A stretch of 53,013 nt of DNA from Candidatus Xenobia bacterium. GTDB taxonomy: Bacteria > Vulcanimicrobiota > Xenobia > Xenobiales > QWHO01. Shown one piece after another: positions 10,201 through 13,200 of this stretch. The position numbers were made by a program. The stretch is taken from contig BTUM01000055.1 in assembly GCA_045863235.1 (NCBI GenBank), forward strand, positions 1 to 53,013. Direction: 5' to 3'. Numbering within the stretch: position 1 is the first letter of the stretch; each line of letters opens with the position of its first letter.

Positions 10201-13200
10201 AAGGTCAGACTCGACTTCAGGCTGGGATCGTGCTGAAAGCAGCGGACGGGGATGCGTCGCGCCATCTCCTCCCAGCCCAGACGAGCTTGCAGCACTTCGA
10301 GCATTCTCTGCAGCGTGATCCCATGCAGAGGATTGTTGGGCTGCTCCATCTCTACCTCCGCGTTACCGGGCTGAGCGGGTCTACCGGCCGCCCTGACCGG
10401 CAACGCGTAACGAACCGTTTCATGCCGTCGGCTTCTCACCCGATCCGGCCGTCTTGACGTCCTTGACCACCTCTTGGAGGTTGGTGCCCTCCAGCCGGCG
10501 GGCATAGTCGTTCTCCCACTTCTCGTGGGCGTGGTCGGCGAAGGCCTTGAGCGTCTCGCGCTGCATCTCGAGGAAAGTGGGCTTGTCGATCTCACCCAGG
10601 GCCAGCTTTTTGGTCGCCTCGTCGTTCCAGGTCTCGGGCACGGCCCCGGTCAGCTTGAAGTAGAGGTTCTCCAGCTTACGCCAGCCGTCGTACTTCTCCA
10701 TCAGCGGGTTCCACATGCCGTTCACGATGCAGTAGTTGGTGGCCCAGGGCATGTCGTGGTGCTCGGCGTGATCGCGCTTGGTCTGGGCCAGGTGCAGCTT
10801 CTGCATCAGCTTGCCCAGGGCGGGCGGATTCTCGGTGTGGGTCCAGCGGTGTGAGCCCTGGGCAAAGAATCCGCCGGCCAGGAAGCTCAGTCCGAAGGCA
10901 CCCGCCGCATAGTGGGGATTGGTCAGGCCCACGGCCGCCATCATAGGAGCCATGAAGATGCCGGCCCGCGAGCAGTTGCTCAGGAAGGGGACCTTGAGCA
11001 AGCTGTAGTGATCGCGATGGTGATACTGGAACTCGGCCGCCAGCTTGCCGATGTAAGGCGAGGTGGGCTTGGGATAGTTGTCGATCCAGTGATGGAAGAC
11101 GCCGCTGGCCATGTCGGCGGCGGCGTAGCCGGCCACCAGCGACGCGGCCACCACGCCGGCCCCGATCAGCTTGCCCTCCAGGCCCGGCAGCATGGCCACC
11201 TGGGCGGCCACGTTGACGGCCGTCATGACCGCTCCGGCGGTCATCACCCCGGCCACGGCATAATCTTTCTTGCTGGGCTTGACGCCCTGGAACTCGGCCT
11301 CGGTCTCGGCCGACATGTCGTAACGCCCGCCCCGCAGGAACTCACCCTTGTACTGAATGACATCCCGCGAGCTGGCCTCCTGGGCGCCGTCTTGCTCCTG
11401 CACCTCGGCCGGAGGAACCGGCCTGGCCGAGCTCAGAGTGGGCAGTTTCGCGACTGCTGCTACGTTCATGTTTGATCGCCTTCCTTCAGTGCAAGACCTG
11501 TGGTCTTGAGCTTTCCAACCCGTCAGACACTAGGAGCGCTGCCGGAAACCCCCTTGACATGGTTTTCCGGCTGCGCGACGCCCAACATATTGTGCTAGAA
11601 GTCCGGCCGCCTACAACATCTTGTGGTGGCGGAGGTTCCCTCCGACACCACAGGGGGGTTTGCGGCCGGACTTCTAGCTGGAGAACTTGTCCACCAGTTT
11701 TTGCCAGTAAGCCGTCGAGAATCGGTCGGGAGTTGACAGCCCGCCCAGCGCCGCGGCTTCCTCGGCCGCCCGGGCGGTCTCGTTCATCCAGGCCACCACG
11801 TCCACCGGGTACTTGCCCACGGCCGTCTCGGCCGAAGTCATGTAGGCGTTGGCCCCGTCCAGCACCGCACCGGTCACATCGGCCAGCTCGGCCCGTTTGG
11901 GCGAGGGGTTATCGATCATCGAGTCCATCATCTCGGTGGCCACGATGACGGGTTTCCCCAGCTCTCGACAGCGGGCCACGATCAACTTCTGCAAGACGGC
12001 CACGTAGTGGGGCGGGGTCTCCACGGCCAGATCGCCCCGGGCCACCATGATGACGTCGGAGGCGGCGATGATCTCGTCCAAGTTCTTGAGGGCCAGCACG
12101 TCCTCGATCTTGGCGCACAGGGGCAGGTCCTGGCCCCCTTTGTTGAGGAAGCGGCGCACGGCGTGCATATCCTCGGCCCTCTGGACCTTGGAGACGGCCA
12201 CCATGTCCACCCCCGCCTTGAGGCCCCACTCCAGGTCGCGCTGGTCTTTCTCGGTGAAGGCGTCGATTCGCGTCTGAGCGCCCGGAACAGCAAGGCCGCA
12301 ACGGTCGGTGAGGCGCCCCCCGGCGGTCACCTCGCATTCGACACCCTGCTCGCTCTGGCGCAGCACCTTGAGAGCCACGGCGCCATCCTTGAGGAGAATC
12401 TTCTTACCCGGCTGCATGGCCTCGCGCAGGTGAGGCGGCTCGAAGCTGATGCCCTGGTCGCCGAGCGTCACGAGCTCGCCCGTCCTCAGGCTGCGCTCGC
12501 CCCCGGGGAAGCTGCCCAGCCGCACCTTGGGGCCGCGCAGATCGAGCAGAACTGAGGCTTTACGGCCAGTGGCCCGGGCGGCCGTGCGCAGGTTGGCCAC
12601 CAGTTTGTCGCCGTCCTCGTGCTTGAGGTGCGAGCAGTTGAGGCGGGCGATGTCCATGCCTGCCTCGAGCATCTTCATCAGCGTGTCGCGGTCCGAGCTG
12701 GCCGGCCCCAGGGTGGTGATGGAGCGGGTCTTGATGTCACCCGGCTGGCCCGGTCCGTGAAAAATCTCCTGAGCGGCCGCCTGAGCCACGGGACCGGCGC
12801 TGCGAGGGAGCGTGGACAGAGCAAGACCAGGGCCGATGATCATGGCCTGAGTCTAGAAGCCAGGAATGAAAAAACGCGGAAAACGCAGAAGCTGGTCGGA
12901 GTGAAGCCTTACGAGCCACCCGTCATCGAGGTCTTCGAGCTGCCGGAAGAGCTCTCGCTGCAAGAGTGGGAGCGGTTGTTCCAATCGCCCGACAAGCCCT
13001 ATGCAGCCGGCTGACGTCACCATCGTGGGCTTCGGCCCCGGGCAGTGGAGCAAGCTCACGCTCGAGGTCCACGACCTCTTGCTGCAGGCCGACCGCATCT
13101 ACACCCGCGACCCGCTCAGCTGGGAGGTGCTGCGCGAGCTCAAGGCCCGGGGCAAGAACGTGATCAGCCTCAGCTCGCTGTATCTGCTGGGCCTGCCGGT

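Follow-up and report, generated by a model that had tools for sequence, protein, structure and literature searches.

The Candidatus Xenobia bacterium analyzed here (G000; an 8.4-Mb genome from sludge, 97.6% complete) carries about 425 to 550 genes whose products share a Ser/Pro-rich, non-hydrophobic N-terminal leader, hereafter the tag, and a promoter built on TTTCAG repeats occurs throughout its genome. Tag and promoter are combined in a pyruvate kinase (PK) gene at 11674..12843 (minus strand) of the window, that is, of the entire 53,013-nucleotide stretch under study. The genome also encodes a type III export apparatus of flagellar type, and on balance we lean toward the view that a type III-type route carries tagged proteins into the cell of a host or prey.

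The tagged pyruvate kinase and its neighbors

The tagged PK gene encodes 389 amino acids comprising the A and B domains without the C domain. The barrel and lid (11794..12732) match the Pfam PK family (PF00224; residues 38-350, 318 bits), the protein scores 375 bits for TIGR01064 (cut-off 306), and its model has the barrel-and-lid fold of 5wrp (Foldseek E 1e-42, rmsd 1.9 A). PF02887 (PK_C) does not match; the protein stops 39 residues past the barrel, and the short C-terminal tail that replaces the allosteric domain (11674..11793) is common to all tagged PKs that were aligned. R67, N69, S71, H72, D101, R108, K245, E247, G270, D271 and T303, which we take to have catalytic roles, are invariant in 10 aligned PKs, and the substitutions near the active site include ATEM for ATQM and SAET for SGET. 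Judged from its sequence, the protein is a pyruvate kinase that has kept its catalytic residues and lost its allosteric domain.

The preliminary description had singled out this gene as leader-tagged and promoter-led, which is correct. A 33-residue N-terminal extension (12745..12843) is predicted to be disordered at residues 1-15 and to form an ordered helix at residues 18-29. Upstream (12850..12882, minus strand) lie two TTTCAG-type boxes 11 bp apart, a 10-nt spacer and a TAGACT -10 box, with a promoter score of 23.3. Only 6 nt separate this promoter from the ATG, so the mRNA is predicted to be leaderless. The second box and the -10 box are conserved upstream of PK in G001, G003 and G004, with a drifting spacer. 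The plain, housekeeping PK on another contig (42% identical) has a C domain and neither extension nor promoter (score 4.0); in the alignment of the pair, residue 38 of the tagged protein is the first to match, opposite residue 5 or so of the plain protein. In quick trees with long branches, the tagged PK itself sits on a long branch, and tagged PKs form one clade across two families that does not join the housekeeping clade; an origin by duplication of the housekeeping PK is not rejected by these trees (AU p 0.24). One relative (G025) has a PK copy with the promoter and a negative leader score. Contigs from four RNA-library runs span the PK gene, but they also span adjacent genes and intergenic DNA.

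Several neighboring genes have similar features. A tagged TMEM189/CarF-type lipid desaturase (10420..11469, minus strand) has a weak promoter match at 11527-11559, and seven of the eight paralogues of this desaturase are tagged or promoter-led. On the plus strand, a promoter (7779-7811, score 18.7) precedes a tagged 410-residue protein without a Pfam match, the two together spanning 7779..9077, and a DUF7689 protein with a leader-like N-terminus (leader score 4.0) follows at 9085..9939. A tagged 446-residue protein at 5036..6376 (minus strand) has neither a Pfam nor a promoter match. An Rfam scan of the window gave no match.

A shared promoter and a shared leader

The promoter, TTTCAG-N5-TTTCAG-N10-TAnnnT, was discovered de novo. 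At a threshold of at least 12 bits it is found upstream of 409 of 7,015 called genes versus 7 of 4,382 gene interiors; the 226 matches in 6,976 upstream stretches read on the antisense strand are what divergent genes would lead one to expect. The strict pattern occurs 63 times, versus 0 for the reversed control. A second promoter, AGGR-N16-CGAA, was considered for tagged genes without TTTCAG and rejected (7/210 vs 280/5876). Recent swapping of one promoter-leader cassette was likewise discarded: 26 unrelated pairs share only 20-53 nt matches, with no common cassette.

The promoter-defined gene set was picked without regard to protein sequence, and the promoter label can be predicted from N-termini (cross-validated AUC 0.88 vs 0.68 for internal segments). 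The promoter and the leader claimed earlier are both real. Residues 2-25 of these proteins are enriched in Ser (9.2 vs 6.4%) and Pro (10.4 vs 6.2%) and depleted in Leu, Glu and Asp, whereas residues 80-104 show no Ser or Pro difference. Sec-like signal peptides are found in 12 of 370 promoter genes versus 1,158 of 6,064 others. Of the 425 leaders, 132 contain a D-x-[VF]-x-[LIFP] motif, versus 16 in shuffles. Disordered, rich in Ser, Thr and Pro, poor in Leu, Asp and Glu, and without a hydrophobic core, the leader resembles the N-terminus of a type III substrate, in agreement with the signal composition given in the part of PMC2669295 available to us. According to the same part of that paper, known effectors have no regular N-terminal extension.

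The leader classifier produces false positives, including ribosomal protein L18 and about two dozen housekeeping matches among 154 annotated proteins. A genome-wide alignment-offset control (30/79 vs 34/179) is weak and confounded by missed leaders. The idea that the tag replaces a Sec signal was rejected, as only 4 of 79 best untagged paralogues were flagged, one or two convincingly.

Tagged enzymes and their paralogues

About 20 cytosolic enzymes had been described as existing twice, as a plain and a tagged copy. Tagged and untagged pairs do exist, but most are old paralogues of 23-48% identity, and the notion of a kit of twins is overstated, with enzymes forming a minority of the tagged set. 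Tagged adenylate kinase (ADK), DeoC, thioredoxin reductase (TrxR), adenosine deaminase (ADA), cytidine deaminase (CDA), PPK2, acyl-CoA ligase and ACP were all recovered. Tag and promoter occur together in a copy with an untagged paralogue for PK (identity above), TrxR (40-42%), ADA (26%), CDA (48%), PPK2 (35%) and acyl-CoA ligase (33-34%), the last with a leader score of 9.2 only from the third start codon. ADK (paralogue 31%) and ACP (paralogue 39%, promoter score 11.2) are tagged without a clear promoter, as had been noted. DeoC has tag, promoter and a 65% identical paralogue; this supposedly plain twin carries its own 90-residue extension and is encoded in a microcompartment locus.

Other pairs are more distant or dissolve. 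LOG and the RNase R-family protein have only remote paralogues (28%, E 2e-10, and 23%, the twin of the latter aligning from residue 202). The six acyltransferases are indeed tagged, but they belong to one expanded family with eight tagged paralogues 30-53% alike and two untagged members. The copies called cardiolipin synthase (Cls) are PLD-family proteins, the one scanned (on C25) reaching 90 bits against a TIGR04265 cut-off of 290. Among enzymes thought to exist only with a leader, the ADP-dependent kinase family and GlpD stand, whereas uridine kinase has a plain udk elsewhere (E 3e-40). The single AdoMetDC is probably untagged: a promoter is found 28 nt before an upstream ATG, but the extension from that ATG scores -0.8, and a start codon lies six residues before the domain. 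A second AMP-binding candidate, the acyl-CoA ligase on C23, was rejected as tagged; it has no extension, and the call is a start-call artefact.

The tagged set as a whole is dominated by proteases, beta-propellers and Pfam-less proteins (247 of 401 scanned). Tagged cargo includes S8, C11, M13, S9 and C92 proteases, amylases, a trehalase and nucleases, and many small hydrophobic-hairpin proteins are tagged as well. Typical amoeba symbionts carry ankyrin, LRR, F-box, U-box and protein kinase families, none of which was among the listed matches of the 401 scanned proteins. Three RUS-family proteins are tagged or promoter-led, and the Atlas clusters closest to them are 93-100% eukaryotic; bacterial prey might instead be indicated by possible peptidoglycan-active cargo (GHL10, NlpC/P60, C92). 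A predatory life was proposed for marine members of the phylum, whose abundance peaks in fractions enriched in eukaryotes (PMC9259500). The words "secretion" and "type III" are absent from the main text of PMC11484240, bioRxiv 10.64898/2026.06.21.733656 concerns another phylum, and PMC9963460 is the source of the terminal-reassortment reference only.

Repeated gain of the tag in relatives

ADA copies with leader and promoter had been reported from relatives. Six of 27 ADA rows are tagged (G000, G002, G004, G007, G013 and G017), all six with the promoter, and the other 21 have neither (leader 0/21, promoter 0/21). These six come from two families and do not form one clade (AU p 0.026), and the tagged ADAs of G007 and G017 are 58-60% identical to the plain ADAs of their own genomes. 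From these sequences, ADA has acquired the tag twice. Tagged ADK is also found in relatives (7 of 24 rows), although the maximum is four ADK genes per genome in 15 genomes at E<=1e-15, and not six as stated before. The ADP-dependent kinase is tagged in all seven genomes examined. The small-genome family f3 keeps the export machine but showed no tagged form of PK, ADK or ADA, and has 0-3 strict promoter sites.

A flagellar-type export machine

One locus (C27) contains flgBC, fliEFG (fliG twice), fliHIJ, a transglycosylase gene, fliK, a short flgE-like gene, fliMN (fliN twice), fliOPQ (fliQ twice), fliR and flhBA, and another (C74) adds a FlgJ-type rod cap and two further rod genes. The gate, ATPase and C-ring genes of a type III export apparatus are thus all present. 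Flagellin, MotA (MotA_N) and L-ring genes were not found in G000 in searches with positive controls, so the set is not that of a motile flagellum. Across the class, FliP is found in 42 of 44 genomes, flagellin in 10 and FlgH in 8; in G004 and G011 a second FliP is on the same contig as flagellin. FlhA scores 815 bits (cut-off 772) versus 617 as SctV (cut-off 692), and FliI clade 2 scores 647 (630) versus 595 as SctN (605); an injectisome core of the SctV/SctN type was rejected because both proteins score as flagellar.

Within the machine, FliK (2.8) and the FlgJ-type protein (4.4) have positive leader scores, the cytoplasmic and membrane parts are negative, and the rod proteins and three core pilin copies have no leader score. 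The cell is diderm (Omp85). Three secretin matches lie on C26, C145 and C70 and none on either export contig; by gene context, the two strong ones belong to type II and type IV pilus-like operons. A pilin candidate of 81 residues occurs in three copies beside flhA, one of them behind the promoter, and it is present in 38 of 44 genomes. It has no Pfam or NCBIfam match, but resembles HrpA/HrpE clusters in the Atlas (likeness 0.88-0.91); in the clusters with a likeness of 0.90-0.91, 23-24% of members carry HrpA_pilin. Its single-sequence fold, one long helix, is uninformative. A NolX/HrpF translocon candidate was rejected, since the partial match is short and falls on a region that resembles an EF-hand. 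CesT-type class I chaperones were found in 0 of 21 genomes in a search in which no control genome gave a match either. In a test for energy parasitism, TLC nucleotide transporters were not found in G000, and weak partial matches occur in 10 of 31 genomes, with silent controls.

Destination of the tagged proteins

There is good, if indirect, support for type III-type export: leader composition, few Sec signals, a conserved flagellar cluster without a motor, and repeated gain of tag and promoter together. In the reading that we favor, Xenobia would keep a flagellum-derived export machine whose filament and motor were lost, and the TTTCAG repeat promoter would place several hundred cargo genes under one regulator that turns them on, perhaps about half of them as leaderless mRNAs. 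The leader would serve as the export signal read by the machine, and cargo would pass the outer membrane unfolded and reach a host or prey, more likely a microbial eukaryote, where it would enter the cell's cytoplasm or a compartment derived from the host. Metabolic enzymes in this cargo could be old paralogues or transferred genes that acquired tag and promoter, sometimes dropping control domains such as the allosteric domain of the tagged PK. In the recipient, PK, ADK, PPK2 and ADP-dependent kinase may regenerate or redistribute ATP; the RNase, LOG, ADA, CDA and DeoC may degrade nucleotides to importable pieces; acyl-CoA ligase, ACP, acyltransferases, desaturases, GlpD and PLDs may remodel membrane lipid; and many proteases would be delivered alongside.

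The preliminary description argued that such enzymes make sense only inside another cell. This is fair for PK, ADK, PPK2, ADP-dependent kinase, TrxR, ACP, acyl-CoA ligase and the lipid enzymes, because they need cytosolic substrates or cofactors, but not for deaminases, LOG, nucleases and PLDs, which act on released material. Indeed, cargo rich in proteases, amylases, trehalase and nucleases would also suit a digestive secretome that uses a type III signal and reaches the periplasm, surface or surroundings (biofilm matrix or lysed prey), its kinases acting on metabolites released nearby. The failure to find an L-ring, a dedicated secretin or a translocon fits that picture, as do, in the parts of these papers we could draw on, the protease and glucanase exported by a flagellin-less Lysobacter system (PMC7688988) and the arrival of Chlamydia glycogen enzymes in the inclusion lumen (PMC4829429). 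We nevertheless consider it rather unlikely. Type III export requires unfolding, so enzymes with FAD, heme or phosphopantetheine need a cytoplasm-like destination, as do those dependent on PEP, ADP, CoA, UDP-sugars or NADPH; the pilin-like protein is strongly conserved and present in several copies, and the genome has genes for Sec and type II secretion too. Delivery into a cell has its own difficulties: neither an L-ring, a translocon nor a TLC transporter was found in G000, half of the PK extension is helical, family f3 keeps the machine without tagged PK, ADK or ADA, and rod and pilin lack leader scores. The absence of amoeba-symbiont domain families from the listed matches, the G025 PK, the lack of a regular extension in known effectors, the gene context of the secretins, the possible peptidoglycan-active cargo and the weak offset control and false positives of the leader classifier also weigh against it.

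It is improbable that the leader directs proteins to a compartment inside the cell or to a sibling one (a microcompartment, vesicle, or daughter or resting cell) in a TTTCAG-regulated developmental program. The large single regulon, the membrane-building enzymes and the microcompartment locus of the DeoC paralogue would be understandable, but the export cluster has a transglycosylase and a rod cap for wall passage, and the eukaryote-type RUS proteins and dozens of proteases better fit an outside target. Encapsulation peptides are amphipathic helices on enzymes of a shell-protein locus. Such a peptide was rejected here: tagged genes are scattered and their leaders are Ser/Pro-rich, while enzymes of the microcompartment locus (C136) have a different, amphipathic N-terminus and no promoter. 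Equally hard to credit is that an acquired promoter, through leaderless translation, produced the extensions as a side effect, and that the copies are ordinary condition-specific cytosolic isoenzymes. Leaderless starts do force translation at the first AUG, the leaders are of low complexity and poorly conserved, and AdoMetDC and the C23 ligase were start-call artefacts; yet 284 of 547 leader genes have no promoter, genes whose untranslated leaders are 25-45 nt long encode the leader as well, the D-x-[VF] motif shows an 8-fold enrichment around residue 29, all six tagged ADAs in two families have both features, and 0 of 113 unrelated PKs has a leader score above 2.

We offer a more specific form of delivery only tentatively, with less confidence than delivery itself: Xenobia may have turned a flagellum into an injection device independently of the known injectisomes, keeping the rod, losing filament, motor and L-ring and gaining an HrpA-like pilus, and may install a metabolic module (unregulated PK, ADK, PPK2, ADP-dependent kinase, salvage and lipid enzymes) in the host or prey cell, the same enzymes being recruited more than once. 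If delivery is true, a widespread uncultured class would consist of parasites or predators that move metabolism into their victim, beyond lysis; type III metabolic effectors would no longer be confined to one Chlamydia pathway but would cover lipid, nucleotide and energy metabolism at once; a flagellum would have become a delivery machine in nature for a second time; and co-culture with the host would be a route to growing these bacteria. With promoter and leader defined, the list of cargo can be computed and put to the test.

Comparison with known systems

Compared with bacterial PKs (PF00224 plus PF02887, TIGR01064), the tagged copy shares the fold and catalytic residues, and differs in its missing C domain, its extension, the substitutions near the active site and its long branch. 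A close parallel for exported housekeeping enzymes is Chlamydia trachomatis, whose glycogen enzymes GlgA, GlgB, GlgX, GlgP and MalQ and phosphoglucomutase CT295/MrsA acquired a type III signal at the N-terminus and do their work beyond the bacterial cell; as presented in the portions of PMC4829429 and PMC9251005 used here, they represent one pathway, served by an injectisome with a secretin in an obligate intracellular pathogen. Xenobia, in contrast, has an 8.4-Mb genome, an export gate of flagellar type and separate tagged paralogues that span nucleotide, energy and lipid metabolism.

Lysobacter enzymogenes OH11, a microbe without flagella, secretes hydrolytic enzymes against microbes by using flagellar export genes, with three substrates reported in the part of PMC7688988 consulted. 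Xenobia has hundreds of candidates with a shared leader and promoter, a system conserved across the class and a pilin-like protein in addition. In Buchnera, hook-basal bodies also retain basal body and export genes with a suspected secretion role, but no secreted proteins are recognised there (PMC8109811), whereas Xenobia has a large candidate cargo.

Hrp systems place pilin and cargo under one promoter class (hrp-box or PIP-box logic), which resembles the arrangement in Xenobia. Non-flagellar type III systems, including Hrp and the secretin-less system of Myxococcales, also share the loss of motility parts and a small helical pilin candidate, and FlgBC, FliE and FliG, which Xenobia keeps, are absent from the Myxococcales system (PMC3459982, in part). 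FlhA and FliI of Xenobia score as flagellar rather than SctV/SctN, and no secretin is linked. Because of these flagellar-type proteins, the retained FlgBC, FliE and FliG, and the lack of a linked secretin, gene content suggests that the Xenobia machine is a separate repurposing of the flagellum.

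A repeat promoter and an N-terminal leader

The window spans contig C55 of a genome (8.36 Mb, 65.8% GC, completeness 97.6%) that belongs to the class Xenobia, which NCBI taxonomy places under Vulcanimicrobiota; homologues labelled Ca. Eremiobacterota are in line with this assignment. Sequencing runs containing the window stretch are mainly metagenomes of sludge, bioreactor and wastewater. The gene set comprises 7015 genes from a purpose-written gene caller, whose start sites are predictions. Gapped-word counting across upstream regions gave TTCA-N8-TCAG as the strongest signal, refined to the consensus TTTCAG-N5-TTTCAG-N10-TAnnnT. 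Scores of at least 12 bits occur upstream of 409 of the 7015 genes, versus 7 of 4382 gene interiors; in 236 of 433 promoter cases, the start codon that follows is 6-9 nt beyond the -10 box. The layout, a pair of repeats spaced 11 bp apart with a 10-bp gap to the -10 box, presumably resembles PhoB/OmpR-family operators. Strict pattern sites number 63 in this genome, 26-60 in its genus, 64-65, 29-41 and 5-27 in the Xenobia genera g5, g4 and g2, and 0-3 in the small-genome family f3, with 0-1 for reversed-pattern controls. The highest scores (31-34) precede peptides of 64-71 aa at C51:45256-45450, C27:16952-17155 and, in two copies, on C133. Two further motifs are abundant upstream of genes genome-wide: AGGR-N16-CGAA, matched 276 times in upstream regions, and a GTTAAC/GTAACA repeat, matched 43 times.

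Promoter-led proteins begin with M-[QIHN]-[IV] and continue with an S/P/A/R-rich run, often with D-x-[VF]-x-[LIFP] around residue 29. A leader model trained on the promoter label reached a cross-validated AUC of 0.88, versus 0.68 for an internal-segment control, and the score exceeded 2 for 147 of the 370 genes behind the promoter, versus 176 of the other 6064. After self-training, 547 genes passed at a loose cut and 425 at a strict cut; false positives include one gene among the 28 of the ribosomal region and about two dozen housekeeping proteins among annotated hits. None of 113 unrelated pyruvate kinases scored above 2. Hydrophobic signal peptides are found in 12 of the 370 promoter genes versus 1158 of the 6064 others. 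In promoter-gene N-termini, S and P are raised and L, D and E lowered, in agreement with the type III signal composition reported in PMC2669295.

The tagged pyruvate kinase

The leader-bearing ("tagged") pyruvate kinase gene (11674-12843, minus strand) encodes 389 aa, with the barrel at residues 38-350 and the C domain absent. The protein scores above the TIGR01064 cut-off in a profile search, and its predicted fold is that of a pyruvate kinase (pLDDT 85; top Foldseek match 5wrp, rmsd 1.9 A). R67, N69, S71, H72, D101, R108, K245, E247, G270, D271 and T303, which we take to have catalytic roles, are invariant in a 10-sequence alignment. Lack of the allosteric domain would fit an always-on enzyme. 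In the predicted model, residues 1-15 of the 33-residue extension are disordered and residues 18-29 helical, so the free leader would be only about half of the extension.

Identity to the housekeeping copy on contig C57 is 42%, versus 41-48% to unrelated bacterial pyruvate kinases, so the housekeeping copy is no closer. The promoter is present in 6 of 37 Xenobia pyruvate kinase rows (G000, the genome under study, and G001, G003, G004, G013 and G025; 387-395 aa), five of which have positive leader scores; the remaining 31 rows have neither promoter nor leader. In quick trees, the tagged copies form a single clade spanning two families on a long branch (SH-aLRT 98-99), and sisterhood with the housekeeping clade is absent, yet not rejected (AU p 0.24). 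Judging from these sequences, the tagged pyruvate kinase is one old acquisition.

Between the pyruvate kinase and desaturase genes lies a 150-bp element (11530-11680) that contains an inverted repeat. Copies of it with 94-97% identity are numerous in the rest of the genome; the element accounts for a local depth peak and has no Rfam match. At 13001-14013 (plus strand), a tetrapyrrole-methylase-family gene and then a PqqD-like one, both preceded by a very short ORF, could be a peptide-modification locus. At 44952-48089 (plus strand) is a gene for a 1045-aa protein whose N-terminal part is T/Q-rich and of low complexity, with an HD domain at the C-terminus; contig C2 encodes a tagged HD/Macro protein.

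The tagged set

A Pfam scan of 401 tagged candidates (301 of the loose set and 100 more of the strict set) found a family at E<=1e-6 for 154 and none for 247 (hand count). Paralogues that are tagged or promoter-led include proteases (S8, 12/22; clostripain, 13/16; C92, 6/6), lipid families (desaturases, 7/8; acyltransferases, 8/10; MGDG-synthase-like, 2/4) and RUS (3/3), caleosin (2/2), GHL10 (2/2) and endonuclease I (3/4) proteins. Numerous beta-propellers, amylases, one trehalase, one heme peroxidase and one P450 are also tagged.

The preliminary description listed about 20 enzymes as plain copies with export-leader twins. These enzymes make up a small share of the tagged set. Tagged and untagged pairs were reproduced for nine: pyruvate kinase, TrxR, ADA, CDA, PPK2, acyl-CoA ligase, DeoC, ADK and ACP. 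Paralogues of LOG and the RNase R-family protein exist but are remote, tagged PLD proteins are not shown to be cardiolipin synthases, and the acyltransferases are one family. Among supposed leader-only enzymes, the ADP-dependent kinase and GlpD are indeed tagged and single, whereas uridine kinase is paired in this genome and AdoMetDC is probably untagged. Tagged TrxR, RNase R, ACP, GlpD and udk fall below equivalog cut-offs, so substrates may have shifted. The system is real, conserved and unusual, but the list was too long and "twin" is better read as "old paralogue." A microcompartment locus (C136:292-4972, read by eye) contains shell proteins, three EutN-like proteins, aldehyde dehydrogenase, an RpiB-like protein and a DeoC paralogue; encapsulation-type N-termini are present.

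Tag and promoter occur together in 6 of 27 ADA rows and are both absent in the other 21. Constraining the six tagged ADAs to one group worsened the fit (AU p 0.026; 22 rows, five near-copies removed). The tagged ADA of this genome is 26% identical to its plain "twin." Tagged ADAs of genus g4 nest among plain g4 ADAs (58-60% identity), and on this sequence evidence are duplications with gain of the tag. For tagged ADKs, too, the tree calls for two changes. Eight of the 44 class genomes have the ADP-dependent kinase family, one copy each, and in all seven examined it is tagged. Twenty remoter homologues (P0137-P0156; 35-46%) mostly have long low-complexity N-termini (by eye; S/T/P/A-rich) with leader scores of at most 3.0; one is named Deltaproteobacteria, and perhaps these are exported enzymes in another lineage.

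A motor-less flagellar-type machine

Contig C27 (60.7-79.3 kb) carries a complete flagellar-type export gate, ATPase, C-ring, MS-ring, FliE, FlgB, FlgC and FliK, together with a short FlgE-like protein and a transglycosylase. Contig C74 carries two more rod genes with an adjoining sigma factor fragment, a rod cap and a second FliK-like protein. FlhA and FliI score above flagellar profile cut-offs and below injectisome ones. Profile searches of the 97.6% complete genome found no flagellin, MotA_N or FlgH. FliP is present in 42 of 44 class genomes, among them all 24 good ones; 10 have flagellin and 8 have FlgH. Flagellin lies on the same contig as a second FliP in G004 and G011, so the common FliP copy is not the motility system.

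An 81-aa helical protein follows flhA on C27 in three copies, one promoter-led. Its Atlas neighbours are clusters whose members bear HrpA_pilin in 23-24% of cases and HrpE-like in 55%, which makes it, as a lead only, an HrpA-like pilin candidate. It is present in 38 of 44 class genomes, with no match in genus g4 using this query. In 2.4-2.6 Mb genomes, clusters of pilin-like copies lie 4-5 kb from an Omp85 gene (G006 C1:43114-48515; G010 C7:216610-223468; G008 C1:70642-77099). Divergent FliP copies occur in g4, and an untagged extra adenylate kinase (L174, G007 C10:109074-110401) directly adjoins a divergent fliP. Five stand-alone FlhA C-terminal (FHIPEP) proteins (C80:28012-29436, C3:26973-28175, C1:377631-378872, C106:14866-16857 and C107:13658-15829), two of which are FliG_N fusions and one a fusion with an FlhB-like piece, are possible extra docking platforms for cargo.

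Route and destination

Tagged cargo would leave through the motor-less machine. This route is quite likely: it most simply connects a leader of non-Sec type, a promoter shared with a pilin candidate, and the retention of a machine that has no filament. Type III export unfolds its cargo; tagged enzymes that need FAD, heme, phosphopantetheine, CoA, PEP, ADP or UDP-sugar would thus, if exported, probably make most sense in a cytoplasm. Against delivery, Omp85 is present but neither an outer-membrane ring or translocon for this machine nor a TLC transporter was found in the genome (TLC controls were silent), CesT-type chaperones were found in none of 21 genomes (control genomes equally silent), and family f3 retains the machine yet lacks these tagged enzymes.

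We favour a eukaryotic microbe as the target, to which the RUS proteins (nearest clusters eukaryotic), caleosins and desaturases point. The target may instead be bacterial prey, as possible peptidoglycan hydrolases among the tagged cargo and the fact that the scanned tagged proteins gave no ankyrin, LRR, F-box or kinase hits would suggest.

Comparison with known systems

Literature searches (subscription papers lay outside their scope) that combined lineage names with terms for type III or flagellar systems found no title or abstract start describing the leader, promoter or machine; others found none presenting pyruvate kinase or ADK as an injected effector. Pseudomonas aeruginosa is reported to inject a nucleoside diphosphate kinase. 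Marine Eudoremicrobiaceae of the same phylum are proposed predators with varied secretion systems (PMC9259500). Injectisomes descend from flagella (PMC3459982); Buchnera retains basal bodies whose cargo is not known (PMC8109811), and Lysobacter secretes a protease and a glucanase via a flagellin-less export system (PMC7688988). In Chlamydia, glycogen enzymes (PMC4829429) and phosphoglucomutase (PMC9251005) are secreted after gaining a type III signal.
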